From the NCBI GenBank assembly GCA_964016885.1, contig OZ024742.1:28272001-28336000 (forward strand): a DNA stretch of 64,000 nt, written 5' to 3'. Numbering within the stretch: position 1 is the first letter of the stretch; the number at the start of each line of letters is the position of its first letter. The notes beneath the pieces are model-generated. The model ran no database searches, had not been told where the DNA came from, and worked only from the letters and a program-made list of their open reading frames with translations. The position numbers and the translations under genes were made by a program. The stretch is from Eledone cirrhosa (lineage: Eukaryota). Positions 2,064 through 29,175 of this stretch are shown here, piece after piece.

Positions 2064-5000
2064 CTATAGTAGAATAACAAAAACATACAAAATATTACTA
2101 CCACCACTACTGCCACCATCACAACCACCACCAATATAACCACTACCTCTACCAATACCACCACCACCAATACAACCACTACCAATACCAATACCACCAC
2201 TACCAACACCACCACTACCAACATTACCACAACCACTACCTCTACCAATACCACCACCACCAATACAACCACTACCTCTACCAATACCACCACTACCAAC
2301 ACCACCACTGCCAACATTACCACAACCACTACCAACATTACCACAACCACTACCAACATTACCACAACCACTACCAACATTACCACAACCACTACCAACA
2401 TTACCACAACCACATCCACTACCAACATTACCACAACCACAACCACTACCAACATTACCACAACCACTACCAACATTACCACTACCACTACCAACATTAC
2501 CACAACCACAACCACTACCAACATTACCACAACCACAACCACTACCAACATTACCACAACCACAACCACTACCAACATTACCACAACCACAACCACTACC
2601 AACATTACCACAACCACAACCACTACCAACATTACCACAACCACTACCACTACCAACATTACCACAACCACAACCACTACCAACATTACCACAACCACAA
2701 CCACTACCAACATTACCACAACCACAACCACTACCAACATTAGCACTACCACTACCAACATTACCACAACCACAACCACTACCAACATTACCACAACCAC
2801 AACCACTACCAACATTACCACAACCACAACCACTACCAACATTACCACTACCACTACCAACATTACCACAACCACAACCACTACCAACATTACCACAACC
2901 ACTACCACTACCAACATTACCACAACCACAACCACTACCAACATTACCACAACCACAACCACTACCAACATTACCACAACCACAACCACTACCAACATTA
3001 CCACAACCACAACCACTACCAACATTACCACAACCACAACCACTACCAACATTAGCACTACCACTACCAACATTACCACAACCACAACCACTACCAACAT
3101 TACCACAACCACAACCACTACCAACATTACCACAACCACAACCACTACCAACATTACCACTACCACTACCAACATTACCACAACCACAACCACTACCAAC
3201 ATTACCACAACCACTACCACTACCAACATTACCACAACCACAACCACTACCAACATTACCACAACCACAACCACTACCAACATTACCACAACCACAACCA
3301 CTACCAACATTACCACAACCACAACCACTACCAACATTACCACTAGCACTACCAACATTACCACAACCACAACCACTACCAACATTACCACTAGCACTAC
3401 CAACATTACCACAACCACAACCACTACCAACATTACCACAACCACAACCACTACCAACATTACCACAACCACAACCACTACCAACATTACCACAACCACA
3501 ACCACTACCAACATTACCACAACCACAACCACTACCAGCATTACCACAACCACAACCACTACCAACATTACCACTACCACTACCAACATTACCACAACCA
3601 CAACCACTACCAACATTACCACAACCACTACCAACATTACCACAACCACAACCACTACCAACATTACCACTACCACTACCAACATTACCACAACCACTAC
3701 CACTACCAACATTACCACAACCACAACCACTACCAACATTACCACAACCACAACCACTACCAACATTACCACAACCACAACCACTACCAACATTACCACT
3801 ACCACTACCACTACCAACATTACCACAACCACTACCACTACCAACATTACCACAACAACAACCACTACCAACATTACCACAACCACTACCAACATTACCA
3901 CAACCACAACCACTACCAACATTACCACTACCACTACCAACATTACCACAACCACAACCACTACCAACATTACCACAACCACAACCACTACCAACATTAC
4001 CACAACCACAACCACTACCAACATTACCACTACCACTACCAACATTACCACAACCACAACCACTACCAACATTACCACAACCACAACCACTACCAACATT
4101 ACCACAACCACTACCACTACCGACACTACCACTACCAACATTACCACAACAACAACCACTACCAACATTACCACAACCACAACCACTACCAACATTACCA
4201 CTAGCACTACCAACATTACCACAACCACAACCACTACCAACATTACCACAACCACAACCACTACCAACATTACCACAACCACAACCACTACCAACATTAC
4301 CACAACCACAACCACTACCAACATTACCACAACCACAACCACTACCAGCATTACCACAACCACAACCACTACCAACATTACCACAACCACAACCACTACC
4401 AACATTACCACTACCACTACCAACATTACCACAACCACAACCACTACCAACATTACCACAACCACAACCACTACCAACATTACCACAACCACAACCACTA
4501 CCAACATTACCACAACCACAACCACTACCAACATTACCACAACCACTACCACTACCAACATTACCACAACCACTACCAACATTACCACAACCACAACCAC
4601 TACCAACATTACCACTACCACTACCAACATTACCACAACCACAACCACTACCAACATTACCACAACCACAACCACTACCAACATTACCACAACCACAACC
4701 ACTACCAACATTACCACAACCACAACCACTACCAACATTACCACAACCAACATTACCACAACCACAACCACTACCAACATTACCACAACCACAACCACTA
4801 CCAACATTACCACAACCACAACCACTACCAACATTACCACAACCACTACCACTACCAACATTACCACAACCACTACCAACATTACCACAACCACAACCAC
4901 TACCAACATTACCACAACCACAACCACTACCAACATTACCACTACCACTACCAACATTACCACAACCACAACCACTACCAACATTACCACAACCACAACC

Positions 5001-8000
5001 ACTACCAACATTACCACAACCACAACCACTACCAACATTACCACAACCACAACCACTACCAACATTACCACAACCACTACCAACATTACCACAACCACAA
5101 CCACTACCAACATTACCACAACCACAACCACTACCAACATTACCACAACCACAACCACTACCAACATTACCACAACCACTACCAACATTACCACAACCAC
5201 AACCACTACCAACATTACCACAACCACAACCACTACCAACATTACCACAACCACAACCACTACCAACATTACCACAACCACAACCACTACCAACATTACC
5301 ACAACCACAACCACTACCAACATTACCACAACCACTACCACTACCAACATTACCACAACCACTACCAACATTACCACAACCACAACCACTACCAACATTA
5401 CCACAACCACAACCACTACCAACATTACCACAACCACTACCAACATTACCACAACCACTACCAACATTACCACAACCACAACCACTACCAACATTACCAC
5501 AACCACTACCAACATTACCACAACCACTACCAACATTACCACAACCACAACCACTACCAACATTACCACAACCACAACCACTACCAACATTACCACAACC
5601 ACTACCACTACCAACATTACCACAACCACTACCAACATTACCACTACCACTACCACTACCAACATTACCACAACCACTACCAACATTACCACAACCACTA
5701 CCACTACCAACATTACCACAACCACTACCAACATTACCACAACCACAACCACTACCAACATTACCACAACCACAACCACTACCAACATTACCACAACCAC
5801 TACCAACATTACCACAACCACAACCACTACCAACATTACCACAACCACAACCACTACCAACATTACCACTGCCACTACCAACATTACCACAACCACAACC
5901 ACTACCAACATTACCACAACCACAACCACTACCAACATTACCACAACCACAACCACTACCAACATTACCACAACCACAACCACTACCAACATTACCACAA
6001 CCACAACCACTACCAACATTACCACTGCCACTACCAACATTACCACAACCACAACCACTACCAACATTACCACAACCACAACCACTACCAACATTACCAC
6101 AACCACAACCACTACCAACATTACCACTGCCACTACCAACATTACCACAACCACAACCACTACCAACATTACCACAACCACAACCACTACCAACATTACC
6201 ACAACCACAACCACTACCAACATTACCACAACCACAACCACTACCAACATTACCACAACCACTACCAACATTACCACAACCACAACCACTACCAACATTA
6301 CCACAACCACAACCACTACCAACATTACCACAACCACAACCACTACCAACATTACCACTACCACTACCAACATTACCACAACCACAACCACTACCAACAT
6401 TACCACAACCACTACCAACATTACCACAACCACAACCACTACCAACATTACCACTACCACTACCAACATTACCACAACCACTACCACTACCAACATTACC
6501 ACAACCACAACCACTACCAACATTACCACAACCACAACCACTACCAACATTACCACAACCACAACCACTACCAACATTACCACTACCACTACCACTACCA
6601 ACATTACCACAACAACAACCACTACCAACATTACCACAACCACAACCAACATTACCACTACCACTACCAACATTACCACAACCACAACCACTACCAACAT
6701 TACCACTACCACTACCAACATTACCACAACCACAACCACTACCAACATTACCACAACCACAACCACTACCACTACCAACATTACCACAACCACAACCACT
6801 ACCAACATTACCACAACCACAACCACTACCAACATTACCACAACCACTACCACTACCAACATTACCACAACCACAACCACTACCAACATTACTACAACCA
6901 CTACCAACATTACCACAACCACAACCACTACCAACATTACCACAACCACTACCACTACCAACATTACCACAACCACAACCACTACCAACATTACCACTAC
7001 CACTACCAACATTACCACAACCACAACCACTACCAACATTACCACAACCACAACCAACATTACCACAACCACAACCACTACCAACATTACCACAACCACT
7101 ACCAACATTACCACAACCACAACCACTACCAACATTACCACAACCACTACCACTACCAACATTACCACAACCACAACCACTACCAACATTACCACTACCA
7201 CTACCAACATTACCACAACCACAACCACTACCAACATTACCACTACCACTACCAACATTACCACAACCACAACCACTACCAACATTACCACAACCACTAC
7301 CACTACCAACATTACCACAACCACAACCACTACCAACATTACCACTACCACTACCAACATTACCACAACCACAACCACTACCAACATTACCACTACCACT
7401 ACCAACATTACCACAACCACAACCACTACCAACATTACCACTACCACTACCAACATTACCACAACCACAACCACTACCAACATTACCACAACCACTACCA
7501 CTACCAACATTACCACAACCACAACCACTACCAACATTACCACTACCACTACCAACATTACCACTACCACAACCAACATTACCACAACCACAACCAACAT
7601 TACCACAACCACAACCACTACCAACATTACCACAACCACTACCAACATTACCACAACCACAACCACTACCAACATTACCACAACCACTACCACTACCAAC
7701 ATTACCACAACCACAACCACTACCAACATTACCACTACCACTACCAACATTACCACAACCACAACCACTACCAACATTACCACTACCACTACCAACATTA
7801 CCACAACCACAACCACTACCAACATTACCACAACCACTACCACTACCAACATTACCACAACCACAACCACTACCAACATTACCACTACCACTACCAACAT
7901 TACCACAACCACAACCACTACCAACATTACTACAACCACTACCAACATTACCACAACCACAACCACTACCAACATTACCACAACCACTACCAACATTACC

Positions 8001-10399
8001 ACAACCACAACCACTACCAACATTAGCACTACCACTACCAACATTACCACAACCACAACCACTACCAACATTACCACAACCACAACCAACATTACCACAA
8101 CCACAACCACTACCAACATTACCACAACCACTACCACTACCAACATTACCACAACCACAACCACTACCAACATTACCACAACCACAACCACTACCAACAT
8201 TACCACAACCACTACCACTACCGACACTACCACTACCAACATTACCACAACAACAACCACTACCAACATTACCACTACCACTACCAACGTTACCACAACA
8301 ACAACCACTACCACTACCACTACCAACATTACCACAACAACAACCACTACCAACACCACCACAACCACTACCACTACAACCAACATTACCACTACCAACA
8401 TTACTACAACCACTACCACTACCGACACTACCACTACCGACATTACCACAACCACTACCAACATTACCACTACCACTACCGACATTACCACTACCACTAC
8501 CAACATTACCACAACCACTACCACTACCAACATTACCACTACCACTACCAACATTACCACAACCACTACCACTACCGACACTACCACTACCGACACTACC
8601 ACTACCGACACTACCACTACCGACATTACCACTACCACTACCAACATTACCACAACCACTACCACTACCGACATTACCACTACCACTACCGACACTACCA
8701 CAACCACTACCACTACCGACACTACCACTACCGACACTACCACTACCGACACTACCACTACCAACATTACCACAACCACTACCACTACCGACACTACCAC
8801 TACCGACACTACCACAACCACTACCCCTACCGACATTATCACAACCACTACCGACACTACCACTACCGACACTACCACAACCACTACCCCTACCGACATT
8901 ATCACAACCACTACCAACACTACCACTACCGACATTACCACTACCACTACCACTACCGACACTACCACTACCAACATTACCACTACCACTACCGACATTA
9001 CCACTACCACTACCAACATTACCACAACCACTACCACTACCGACACTACCACTACCGACACTACCACAACCAACATTACCACAACCACTACCACTACCGA
9101 CACTACCACTACCGACACTACCACAACCACTACCACTACCGACATTACCACAACCACTACCACTACCAACATTACCACAACCAACACTACCACTACCAAT
9201 GCTACCACGACCAACATACCACAACCACTACCAACACTACCACTACCAACATTACCACAACCAACACTACCAACATTACCACTACCACTACCACTACCAA
9301 CATTACCACAACAACAACCACTACCAACATTAGCACTACCACTACCAACACCACCACAACCACTACCACTACAACCAACATTACCACTACCGACATTACC
9401 AACACTACCACTACCAACATTACCACAACCAACACTACCAACATTACCACTACCACTACCGACACTACCACTACATACATTACCACAACCACTACCACAA
9501 CCACTACAAACATTACCACAACCACTACCACACCCACTACCATTACCACAACCAATAATAGCATAACTATCAACAGAACCACCGCTACCACCACAACTAC
9601 TACCAGTACCACCACCACAACCACAACCACTACCACCACAACTACTACCAGTACCACCACTACCACCACAACCACTACCACTACAACTACTACCACCACA
9701 ACCAATACCACCACAACCACTACCACCACAACTACTACCAATACCACGACTAACACGACAACCACTACCACCACTACCACCACAACTACTACCACTACCA
9801 CCACAACCACCACAACCACTACCACCACAACCACTACCACCATTACCACTACCACCACTACCACCACAAATACTACCAGTACCACCACTACCACCACAAC
9901 CAATAACACCACAACCACTACCACCACTACCACCACAACTACTACCACTACCACCACAACCACTACCACCACAACCACTACCACCACTACCATCACAACC
10001 AATACCACCACAACCACTACCACCACAACTACTACCAATACCACGACTAACACGACAACCACTACCACCACTACCACCACAACTACTACCACTACCACCA
10101 CTACTACCACAACCACTACCACCACAACCACTACCACCACTACCATCACAACCAATACCACCACAACCACTACCACCACTACCACCACAACTACTACCAG
10201 TACCACCACTACCATCACAACCAATACCACCACAACCACTACCACCACTACCACCACAACTACTACCAGTACCACCACTACCATCACAACCAATACCACC
10301 ACAACCACTACCACCACTACCACCACAACTACTACCAATACCACCACTACCATCACAACTAGTACCACCACCATCATTATAGTTACTGTTATTTTCCAT
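2064..10399 (-). CDS. Hypothetical ~2,780-aa Gly/Cys/Ser-rich repeat protein (GSGCGCGNV)n; needs a 1-nt correction at ~9217
   Basis: ATG at 10399 opens a G/S/C frame that slips at ccaacatacc (9211-9220; consensus ccaacattacc) into the frame of ORF 2064..9224, ending GGSSGGSNILYVFVILL*. No signal peptide. Coding status unproven. Confidence 0.25.
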
Positions 10400-10405
10400 A
10401 GCTAA
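2073..10405 (+). CDS. Alternative hypothetical mucin-like exon (TTTTTTTNI)n, antisense and in register with the Gly/Cys frame
   Basis: Stop-free from 2073 (after TAGTAG, a possible acceptor) to TAA 10403-10405 with the same 1-nt slip; N-I-T/S sequon in almost every core unit; no ATG, so absent from the ORF track. Confidence 0.2.
2097..10376. repeat. Giant triplet-phased tandem array; main unit CCACAACCACAACCACTACCAACATTA (27 nt) with 15/21/33-nt variants; 69-nt higher-order units at the right end
   Basis: Direct inspection; homogeneous core ~2310-8210, more divergent 8210-9530, distinct ACC-rich domain 9530-10376. Confidence 0.97.
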
Positions 10406-18722: not shown

Positions 18723-18790
18723 ATAGCTGTCTGATGAGGTCATAGCTGTTGCATAAAGGTTATCACCGAAATATATATAACAGTGTCTAT
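18723..18790 (+). ncRNA. Minimal type I hammerhead ribozyme
   Basis: gctgt-CTGATGA-ggtcatagc(loop)gttatcacc-GAAA-tatata-TA-acagt followed by AATAAA; lies in a TA-flanked unique segment 18350-18840. Confidence 0.8.
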
Positions 18791-20601: not shown

Positions 20602-21212
20602 ATAATAATATAAATATATAAATAAATATAAATATATATATATATAAATATATACATACACATATATGTACATGAACATATATATATATATTTGTGTATA
20701 TACATATGATGATTGTATGTATGTGTGTATAAGTTTATATATGCCATTCTTTACTTTAGATTAGAGTTCTGGGGAAAGAAAACATGCCCATAAAATTTCC
20801 ATCATCAAAGAATGTAAACAATATATTGTTTTATATATTATTCAGATTATTATTATTATCATTTTCATTATTATTATTGTTGTCTTTATATTTTATTTCA
20901 TTTTAATATCATTTCATTATTATTAATGTTATATATATATACACATACAGTAATATATGTGTGTGTGTGTATATATACATATTTTTGATCTGTCTCTCTC
21001 TCATGCTGGTTATTAATGTTATATATATATATACACACATATATATATGTGTGAGTGTATATACATATTTTTGATCTCTCTCTCTCTCTCGTACTGGTGG
21101 CAGGAACAAAAGCACCCAGTCCATGCTGTAAAGTGGTGCTGGTGTTAGGAAAGCCATCCAGCCAGTATATATTAATGCCAAAAAACTATGATGATATATA
21201 TATATATATTTC

Positions 21213-21435
21213 ATCATCATCATTTAACGTCTAGCTTCCATGCTAGCATGGTTTTAGACGGGAATTGTCCAACATTGAGGCAAGATTGGTCGGGTGACCA
21301 TGTCTCGACTGGAAGGTTTTCTACGGCTGGATGCCCTTCCTAACACCAACCACATTTACAGTGTGGTCTGGGAGGTTTTTACCATGTTACCTACACAGCC
21401 ACATTGCAGCGTGGACTGTGTGTTTTTTTTTACGT
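21213..21435 (-). mobile_element. RTE/SINE shared 3' tail fragment
   Basis: (CAT)n then ttaacgtc...tgcccttcctaacaccaaccacatttacagtgtgg, as in 28794-29175. Confidence 0.85.
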
Positions 21436-21723: not shown

Positions 21724-21761
<38 letters not shown>

Positions 21762-21769
<8 letters not shown>

Positions 21770-22297
21770 TGTATATATAGTGTATTTGCTAATACACTGT
21801 ATGCTTAATTAAAAGTATTTTGAAGACCTCACGCTATTGTTTTAAAGTAATGACATAGTCACTACTATAAACCAATAGCGTAAGGTCTACAAAATACTTT
21901 TAATTAAGCATACAGTGTATTACCAAATACACTATATATACATTCATATATACATCGCTATTTCAGAGCATCGATTCTAATTTTCAATTTTTGCTGGACC
22001 GGCAACCGTCTGTATAATCAGTTCCTGATTATTACTGGAATTCTATAAGAATCCAACATTCATAATTTTGAACAAGCAAGGGGAGTGCTAAGCTCTGAGG
22101 AATACCAACACTATGAAACAGAGATCTGTCAGTTTATCTCCCTTTGTTTGTTGAAAAAAGAAGTAAGTGACATTGTCACTACTTTAAAACAATAGCGTAA
22201 GGTCTTCAAAATGCTTTTAATTAAGCATACAGTGTATTACCAAATACACTATATATTACATTCTTATATACATCGCTATTTCAGAGCACCAATTCTA

Positions 22298-22299
<2 letters not shown>
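21762..22299 (+). mobile_element. Retrozyme/Penelope-like non-autonomous element: inverted 5' segment plus ~1.4 copies of a ~317-bp unit containing a hammerhead
   Basis: Direct repeats 21845-21981 and 22161-22299; inverted arm 21762-21854; bounded by (TA)n and (TG)n. Confidence 0.8.
22071..22152 (+). ncRNA. Canonical type I hammerhead ribozyme, predicted cleavage after GUC at 22130
   Basis: Helix I aacaagcaaggggag.tgc.taagct / agttta.t.ctccctttgtttgtt; CTGAGGA 22095-22101; helix II ata/tat; GAAA 22115-22118; helix III acag/ctgt. Confidence 0.88.

Positions 22300-22380
<81 letters not shown>
22300..22380. repeat. Pure (TG)n microsatellite
   Basis: Direct inspection. Confidence 0.97.
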
Positions 22381-27773: not shown

Positions 27774-28573
27774 GTGAACGGCAAAGCATAAACGAACTAA
27801 GGAAAAAATTAGAAATAAGAGGGATCAGATGTTGTTTACTCGAGAGAAGGCTACGTTGGTACGGTCACGTGATGCGCATGAAAGACGACAGCTGTATAAC
27901 AAAGTGCAGGGCAATAAAGATAGACGGTAGCCACGGAGTAGGCAGACCCAGAAAAACATGGGACGAGCTGATAAATTCCGACCTCACACGCTTACACCTC
28001 TCCAAGACAATGTCACTGGACCGAGACCTTTGGCGGTACTCAGTAATAGAGAAGACCCGCCTTACCTAAATACAAAGTAAAAACCTACTACAGTCAGTAG
28101 GCACCTCTATCAAAACACACCCCCGTCCCACCACCTCCACCCCACCCACACCGCCCCTTTCAATGTAAAGTTATGTTGGTCCCACAACATCCAGGCCGAA
28201 ACAAATGAGATCGTGTAGGTGTCACGACAAAAAACACACAGTCCACGCTGTAAATGTGGCCGTGTAGGCAACACGGTAAAAACCTCCCAGCCCCACACTG
28301 TAAATGTGGTTGGTGTTAGGAAGGGCATCCAGCTGTAGAAAACCCGCCAGACAGTCCACGCTGTAATGTGGCCGTGTAGGCAACACGGTAAAACCTCCCA
28401 GCCCCACACTGTAAATGTGGTTGGTGTTAGGAAGGGCATCCAACTGTAGAAAACCCGCCAGACAGTCCTATGCGAGCAAGACAACCACTCTTGCCTCAAG
28501 TGGGAAAACCCCCGTCCAAACCCATGCAAGCGTGGAACACGGACGCTAAACCTGATGATGATGATGATGATGA

Positions 28574-28793: not shown

Positions 28794-29175
28794 ATCATTA
28801 TCATCATCATCGTTTAACGTCTGTGTTCCATGCTTGCATGGGTTTGGACGGGAGTTTTCCCACTTGAGGCAAGAGTGGTTGTCTTGCTCGCATAGGACTG
28901 TCTGGCGGGTTTTCTACAGTTGGATGCCCTTCCTAACAGCAACCACATTTACAGTGTGGGGCTGGGAGGTTTTTACCATGTTGCCTACACGGCCACATTA
29001 CAGCGTGGACTGTCTGGCAGGTTTTCTACAGCTGGATGCCCTTCCTAACACCAACCACATTTACAGTGTGGGACTGGGACGTTTTTACCGTGTTGCCTAC
29101 ACGGTCACATTACAGCGTGGACTGTGTGTTTTTTTTTCGTGACACCTACACGATCTCATTTGTTTCGGCCTGGAT
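28794..29175 (-). mobile_element. RTE family A 3'UTR copy in inverted orientation
   Basis: Reverse complement of 28189-28577, including the internal duplication. Confidence 0.92.

Follow-up and report, generated by a model that had tools for sequence, protein, structure and literature searches.

The window analysed here is the whole 64 000-nucleotide stretch C3:28272001–28336000 of the 3.0-Gb Eledone cirrhosa genome (GCA_964016885.1), and positions given without a locus refer to it. The feature of interest is a repeat copy consisting of two arms of one sequence unit joined head to head and flanked by two microsatellites, (TG)6(TA)n on the left (21724–21766) and A(TG)39 on the right (22300–22379), neither of which has a strand (sequence and TRF). 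The left arm (21760–21863, minus strand; BLAST and sequence) is inverted and runs from about unit position 140 back to 36. Its outer end falls within the last 7 bases of the left microsatellite, its first unambiguous base is 21767 and it carries no tail. The right arm (21845–22299, plus strand) is direct and comprises 1.44 turns of a 318-nt unit, from unit position 31 through the predicted ribozyme cut site to position 168; position 1 of the unit is the first base after that cut (22131). The arms meet in the small palindromic hairpin of the unit, where the overlap of the two BLAST arms and the sequence itself define a junction of microhomology common to both (21845–21863, no strand). The inverted arm lacks C141, which both direct passes of the same locus carry.

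Copying beyond one turn, and not an LTR, has given the direct arm a repeat on the plus strand with a first copy at 21851–21981 and a second at 22168–22299, the latter ending at the long 3′ end of the family (repeat comparison). The copies align as 21851–21939/22168–22256 and 21939–21981/22257–22299 with a spacing of 317/318 bp and 93–94% identity, and reach ~137 bp if extended to 21845. The preliminary description of the locus, made from the sequence alone, had reported direct repeats of ~137 bp some 317 bp apart preceded by an inverted 5′ copy; both are recovered, the latter as a 98-nt arm of 93% identity (21757–21854 in the repeat comparison). The last part of the direct arm is a tail of 28–35 nt, which separates the short 3′ end from the long one (22264–22299, unambiguous at 22271–22299, plus strand; end mapping). 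Two adjacent predicted hairpins (22231–22271, plus strand), the second of them AU/AC-rich, precede and contain the short reverse-transcription start. They appear in the circular fold of the consensus and of this monomer and agree with the end mapping, and on this modelling are likely to be the site recognised by the enzyme. Neither a poly(A) tract nor a target-site duplication is evident at the window copy. The copy is an ordinary, slightly decayed member of its family and a dead-end product, not a source: with 1.44 turns it holds one hammerhead, so that its transcript could be cut once but would be unable to release a monomer.

Several other features share the window. A further short dispersed repeat, marked by tandem duplications of 111/112 bp, has copies at 21090–21420, 28238–28468 and 28895–29125. 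An 8.3-kb array of 27-nt units (2073–10405, plus strand) keeps a frame of 2,497 codons open on the plus strand (2073–9566), 73% Thr with 246 Asn-Ile-Thr motifs, which by its sequence is a candidate for a mucin-like, heavily glycosylatable exon; the minus strand of the array is likewise open, for 2,788 codons. Two more hammerhead-like motifs, belonging to another family, occur at 18731 (plus) and 14061 (minus), each with CUGAUGA...GAAA followed by AUAUAUA. A close relative of these is found near position 5851 of locus L217, in which a different hammerhead tandem unit of ~480–510 bp with an internal (TA)n tract (6718–8001) probably represents another retrozyme family.

The hammerhead motif of the window copy spans 22066–22157 on the plus strand, with the predicted cut after C22130. 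The core is formed by CUGAGGA (22095–22101), GAAA (22115–22118) and GUC (22128–22130), with the helix II region at 22102–22114 and helix III at 22118–22129. Helix I (overall span 22066–22094/22131–22157) consists of 6 bp (22089–22094/22131–22136) and 15 bp (22071–22085/22138–22152) separated by a 3×1 internal loop, and contains three G-U pairs. The region 22055–22160 folds with a z-score of −3.5 on the plus strand, better than all 200 shuffles, and of 0.0 on the minus strand, like the shuffles. Both the type I hammerhead and the division of its helix I into 6 and 15 bp around an internal loop, as first described, are upheld by sequence and plus-strand fold. The accompanying argument, that the G-U pairs point to RNA structure on the plus strand, stands only in part: the three pairs are present, but from a single copy they are weak evidence compared with family covariation. 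Relative to the family consensus the copy carries G22111C, so that helix II loses its fourth pair (3 bp against 4 bp in the consensus), C22070G, which breaks one helix I pair, and C22133T, which accounts for one of the three G-U pairs, a position at which most copies have G-C. Rfam gave no hammerhead at the window copy at the gathering score or at E values up to 10, the latter yielding solely miRNA look-alikes driven by microsatellites. Therefore, the ribozyme assignment rests on motif, fold and family covariation. The circular consensus monomer folds with a z-score of −6.3 and its minimum-energy structure retains the hammerhead helices; since the minus strand folds as well (z −6.2), the circular fold is uninformative on strand.

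The window copy belongs to a large repeat family, and the reservation in the preliminary description that the locus might be single-copy does not apply. The consensus unit is 318 nt long and non-coding with a GC content of 33%; its longest stop-free frame is 48 aa, in agreement with the lack of an ORF noted before. A search of the same genome with the unique middle of the unit returned 2,063 candidates, the 40 scored aligning along the entire query at 95–100% identity. Genome-wide there are 4,430 exact matches to a 24-nt motif close to the 3′ end, and 897 and 1,009 to two hammerhead-core motifs, with none for any of the reversed controls. The first 100 matches of the 24-nt motif fall into 71 loci, from which it may be extrapolated that roughly 3,000 loci carry the exact motif. 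The copies are scattered over many chromosomes and lie on either strand. Each mapped copy is a seamless circular permutation of one 318-nt unit, with 0.1–7 turns, and a dimer query returned arms of 2–7.25 turns (40 scored of 2,527 candidates), so that the multimers and permuted copies for which a genome search had been advised do exist. Exclusion of two segmental duplicates from the 71 loci left 69, taken in genome order, as the set used for mapping of ends. Most of these hold less than 1.5 turns, and the length of the direct repeat varies freely between loci. About 8 of the 69 contain two or more hammerheads in tandem (arms of at least 1.8 turns); two intact hammerhead cores each are found at L033, L036, L042 and L049.

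Other forms of multiplication were also seen. At L006 (96–1408) a 38-bp minisatellite of more than 30 repeats, derived from the short-start hairpin region, lies directly upstream of a copy. At L150 (G000:C1:56077200-56080200) a hammerhead-less 163-bp deletion unit is present in 4.4 tandem copies with alternating variants (1183–1810), joined head to head to a 5′-truncated ORF of a Penelope-like element (PLE). This unit is confined genome-wide to that single locus and did not spread; a spreading hammerhead-less derivative was accordingly rejected in favour of a local duplication. Three sequencing runs from one sample were set aside as support because they behave like genomic sequence and may be the source of the assembly. 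A literature search, most of whose papers were judged from their listings, gave no published description of the family.

Compensatory changes are observed in helices I and II of the family. In a set of 110 hammerheads drawn from the first loci, A-U accounts for 82 and G-C for 20 of the 260/21 pairs; at 290/302 the figures are 67 A-U and 19 G-C, and at 291/301 they are 89 U-A and 9 C-G, although these counts reflect few independent events that were inherited by subfamilies. The core pair also varies: of 138 hammerheads, 79 (57 loci) have C3-G8, 53 (37 loci) have U3-A8 and 6 another combination. In the second subfamily, genome-wide, 99 of the first 100 of the 1,009 core-motif matches are U3-A8. 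The same swap occurs in Schistosoma PLE hammerheads (Cervera and de la Pena, 2014; PMC4209133), and rescue by C3G/G8C has been demonstrated (Frangieh et al., 2024; PMC11167929). Core covariation and the spread of U3-A8 to more than 1,000 matches point, at the level of sequence, to selection on catalysis. Helix III together with its loop is perfectly palindromic in five different variants and nearly so in the commonest. As it is self-complementary, a double-hammerhead fold of the kind described by Cervera and de la Pena (2014) may be available beside the monomeric one.

The ends of the copies carry a distinctive footprint. The 69 loci contain 118 segments of at least 40 nt, with 3′ ends near position 142 in 53, near 168 in 48 and elsewhere in 17; 101 of 118 arms thus end at one of two fixed sites ~30 nt apart. 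By comparison the 5′ ends are spread over the entire unit, and 44 of the 118 segments run for at least one full turn. In the raw end lists, (AT)n comes next after the majority of short and long ends. Head-to-head inverted arms are present at 41 of the 69 loci. Thirteen of these pairs have one unclassifiable end, and the 28 classifiable pairs divide into 27 short+long, 1 short+short and 0 long+long (binomial p about 1e-7). The window copy obeys the same rule, its short arm on the minus strand being joined to its long arm on the plus strand in the palindromic hairpin. C141 is absent from the terminal short arm in 9 of 11 cases where internal passes carry it, and the two exceptions look like misclassified internal passes. 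This places the short start at 133–140 and gives the tail its length of 28–35 nt.

These features correspond closely to what has been reported for PLEs, which show partial tandems, an inverted 5′-truncated copy, an often one-ended tail of 30–40 bp and a bias towards microsatellites (Craig et al., 2021; PMC8557442). Purified anole PLE protein cuts and extends both target strands and begins reverse transcription at two internal positions of the RNA, which set the limits of the tail (Frangieh et al., 2024). The family has the tail at one end, variable 5′ truncation, partial tandems and the inverted 5′ copy. Two fixed 3′ ends, one per arm, taken together with the published behaviour, identify the footprint as that of a Penelope-type enzyme. 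The one-long-one-short rule is independent genomic support for PLE-type mobilisation, and the link to Penelope machinery that was first suggested from the tandem and inverted ends is in this respect stronger than claimed. Judged from these sequences, the family is very likely mobilised in trans by a Penelope-like element.

The nature of the RNA template is less certain. The predicted cut site was crossed in 84 of 88 passes. In the second subfamily, genome-wide, 1,597 read-throughs compare with 33 apparent stops at the cut site, of which 30 were inspected; 25 were true stops and 5 small indels, and with 2 further true stops the number comes to ~27. Some 98% of passes therefore read through the site, so that the template was usually continuous, either as a religated circle or as an uncut multimer. 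Given mobilisation by a PLE, a circular RNA is the probable template. The strongest alternative retains the same element and a Penelope-type enzyme and takes as template the uncleaved linear transcript of a tandem donor, with no circular intermediate, the ribozyme merely trimming transcripts or acting at another step. Read-through at the frequencies above is what uncut RNA predicts as well. Moreover, the anole PLE works in vitro mainly on uncut RNA and does not need ribozyme cleavage for insertion (Frangieh et al., 2024), and a free 3′ end is unnecessary as PLE start sites are internal. Of the Xenopus retrozyme dimers tested, only 1 of 9 cleaved (Li, Clavereau and Pollet, 2026; bioRxiv 10.64898/2026.07.22.740005). 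The long arrays are old and heterogeneous, with adjacent units 6–17% apart in L174/L175, and together with the multiplication of the L150 unit without a hammerhead they count against a circle.

Other observations are harder to reconcile with a linear donor. Loci with two hammerheads are few, about 8 of 69, and no locus of this set is longer than 2.35 turns, whereas 44 of the 118 arms go beyond one turn. If cleavage were of no consequence, it would be difficult to see why the catalytic core should have survived a double change; in addition, circles are the main form in which related retrozymes accumulate (Cervera and de la Pena, 2020; PMC7229834). Few tandem donors beside common copies of more than one turn, the conserved core and the circles of related retrozymes thus favour the circle. 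Finally, rare variants are common to both arms and to successive turns. Sharing amounts to 0.0036 per site within a locus and 0.0003 between loci (~11-fold), alike for tandem turns and inverted arms, a difference that is inflated by subfamily structure; it fits one template per insertion, although a homogeneous linear donor or later gene conversion could also produce it. A linear template appears unlikely, if still a serious competitor.

Stops at the cut site were considered as a possible trace of cleaved templates. In the second subfamily 5′ ends at the cut site number 27 of 1,624, against 6 of 2,415 at an ordinary control (6.8-fold, p 2e-6). Against a control matched for the AAAGCT palindrome (9 of 776) the excess is 1.4-fold and not significant (p 0.38), and the pile-up was rejected; single-arm stops are put down to microhomology. 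The window copy's own subfamily has 2 of 508. An extra U in helix I that seemed linked to stopping proved to be the consensus of the second subfamily and was likewise dismissed. Insertions with a stop at the cut site in both arms are a different matter: there are 10, on different contigs, against 0 at the matched site (p 0.036), and some have T/A runs between the arms. Near-symmetric junctions also occur elsewhere: position 68 has 2, position 91 as many as 5 over background, and 4 lie near 45. The 10 junctions are suggestive, not proof, of occasional linear, cleaved templates, and to that extent linear RNA may sometimes serve. At L280/L281 (G000:C10:13520547-13520625) a 28-nt T/A run separates two arms that both terminate exactly at the predicted cut site, as though at the end of its template the enzyme had added a poly(A) tract or jumped to one.

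The genome also contains coding elements that could provide the enzyme. A PF01541 profile search gave 10,597 candidates, of which 150 were scored and 50 GIY-YIG loci examined. Coding elements with RT and GIY-YIG have uninterrupted frames of 844–1,096 aa, the stop-free frames being L207 1275–4562, L208 3809–6622 and L209 1488–4019. Several members of these families are 97–99.6% alike at their ends and the families are therefore young. One coding family has the same long and short arm ends at (AT)n (L212 and L216), and its long end has 7 nt in common with that of the repeat. By sequence homology nothing beyond these 7 terminal bases was found for a partner, and they are weak evidence of one. PLE fragments abut the repeat at L067, L131, L150 and L174. 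Such chimeras were rejected as proof of a partner, as nested insertion explains each; L067 combines long+long ends with a PLE arm that is much younger. At L067, L174, L131, L059 and L173 retrozyme 5′ ends are joined, with no (AT)n between, to arms of coding PLEs or of other hammerhead repeats, and these are possible two-template or nested insertions.

These adjacent PLE fragments could also be taken to mean that the unit is only the pseudo-LTR (pLTR) of a coding Penelope-like element, the loci being 5′-truncated copies. All insertion hallmarks are indeed PLE hallmarks, and 24 of 57 Xenopus retrozyme families match PLEs or related repeats at their termini (Li et al., 2026). However, arms longer than one unit wrap to the same unit and never into a UTR or ORF, and 5′ flanks are unshared apart from two pairs. 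In 133 family loci no ORF end runs into the unit; 8 have PLE protein matches, and in these the match is head to head, distant or has its ORF interrupted mid-way. Similarly, the ends of the 50 GIY-YIG loci, drawn from more than 10,000 candidates, have no extended homology to the unit except for complete inserted copies. The unit is thus, in the sampled loci and as far as sequence comparison goes, not merely a coding element's terminal repeat, the alternative that the preliminary description had named as fatal to its case, and this explanation is very improbable. The unit may still descend from the pLTR of a rare or lost coding PLE, as proposed for Xenopus (Li et al., 2026).

The arms might instead be the work of a LINE-type enzyme, or of a satellite spread by recombination, the inverted arms then being palindromic rearrangements or products of twin priming. 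Twin priming is known for LINEs, and local tandem duplication did occur at L150. This is the least probable explanation of all, given the window copy without evident poly(A) or target-site duplication, the dispersal over both strands of many chromosomes, and two fixed 3′ ends inside the unit, divided between the arms in 27 of 28 pairs, with a 28–35-nt tail of a kind described as PLE-specific (Frangieh et al., 2024).

The window copy is best explained as a dead-end copy of a non-LTR retrozyme that was pasted into (AT)n in trans by PLE machinery, probably from a circular RNA, and we give this reading as a whole a probability of roughly 0.6. Loci with at least two tandem hammerheads, such as those seen among the 69, would be transcribed, and their hammerheads, as predicted from motif, fold and core covariation, would cut out a monomer. 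By analogy with the retrozymes of coral, mussel and axolotl this monomer would be ligated into a circle. A Penelope-type protein would then nick both strands of (AT)n and prime one cDNA per DNA end, one from the long start (168) and the other from the short start (133–140), as in the observed pattern of ends. The cDNAs would run for a variable distance, crossing the cut and ligation site as nearly all passes do. Finally, the two cDNA ends would be joined head to head, often by microhomology such as that present at 21845–21863, or one arm would be lost.

A bolder form of the circular-template reading is tentative, and to our mind somewhat less than an even chance. Here the family would be a ribozyme-dependent circular RNA parasite, in which a dimeric RT/endonuclease engages the 318-nt circle at two points ~30 nt apart and rolls from both ends of the (AT)n break. 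Cleavage and religation would be obligatory in each cycle, the core would be under selection, and a minority of insertions would be fossil evidence of cleavage in vivo and of the partner enzyme. If this were true, selection would be visible in the change from C3-G8 to U3-A8 with remodelled helices I, II and III and self-complementarity kept; the double stops at the cut site, of which some carry untemplated T/A runs, would record linear, freshly cut RNA; and a retrozyme arm joined to a coding PLE arm would record the partner enzyme.

Both the enzyme that mobilises retrozymes and the role of circles as intermediates were the subject of a proposal in 2020 (Cervera and de la Pena, 2020) and are listed as unresolved in the 2026 preprint; in these two sources the PLE as mobiliser is a hypothesis drawn from shared hammerheads, co-occurrence and pLTR homology. 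The present family provides base-level predictions, namely a start at 133–140 on one target strand and at 168 on the other, insertion into (AT)n and read-through of the ligation junction, and the genome itself encodes candidate enzymes in uninterrupted frames. As an in vitro PLE assay exists (Frangieh et al., 2024), a test of the enzyme is within reach. Hammerhead variants of the family also form a natural series, to which the core-pair swap in more than 1,000 matches belongs. The spread of this swap is a sequence pattern indicating that catalysis mattered for spread, in contrast to the PLE in vitro, for which cleavage is dispensable.

By its sequence-level definition the family is an additional non-LTR retrozyme family. 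Metazoan members have a non-coding unit of 150–450 bp (Cervera and de la Pena, 2020; Li et al., 2026), and here a 318-bp head-to-tail unit with a GC content of 33%, no coding capacity and no LTR carries a canonical type I hammerhead with a 6-bp helix I, an internal loop and a 4-bp helix II. Also shared, according to the parts of these accounts drawn on here, are thousands of loci, a highly structured predicted circle in which the ribozyme is free to fold, and co-existing PLEs. An ‘active’ non-LTR retrozyme has at least two intact tandem hammerheads (Li et al., 2026), which is the case for L033, L036, L042 and L049, the window copy having one. The family differs in consisting mostly of dispersed copies of 0.2–1.5 turns in place of arrays, in a longer helix III (4–5 bp) and in the U3-A8 core subfamily. 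Paired inverted arms, two fixed 3′ ends and a tail likewise set it apart from the descriptions in these parts; the main text of the 2020 paper has no mention of ‘inverted’, octopus or cephalopod. In contrast to many Xenopus families of the 2026 preprint, no homologous pLTR was found for this one in the sampled loci.

With EN+ PLEs (Craig et al., 2021; Frangieh et al., 2024) the family shares 5′ truncation, partial tandems, the inverted 5′ copy, a one-ended tail of ~30–40 bp, AT-rich or microsatellite targets, two internal starts and a hammerhead. It has no RT/GIY-YIG ORF, as an autonomous PLE would, and differs further in its full canonical hammerhead, where PLEs have the minimal type, and in a unit that closes on itself; it works like a non-autonomous PLE and not an autonomous one. 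The non-autonomous Chlamys elements, MRC1 among them, are similarly non-coding, with pLTRs and head-to-tail insertions via PLE machinery (Craig et al., 2021). However, they resemble their autonomous partners at the 3′ end and belong to a different kingdom; most Chlamys elements lack hammerheads. The Cercyon PLEs of Schistosoma have undergone the same compensatory change from C3-G8 to U3-A8, but there it is found in the minimal hammerheads of PLE termini, whereas here it affects a canonical hammerhead and both cores occur in one retrozyme family (Cervera and de la Pena, 2014).
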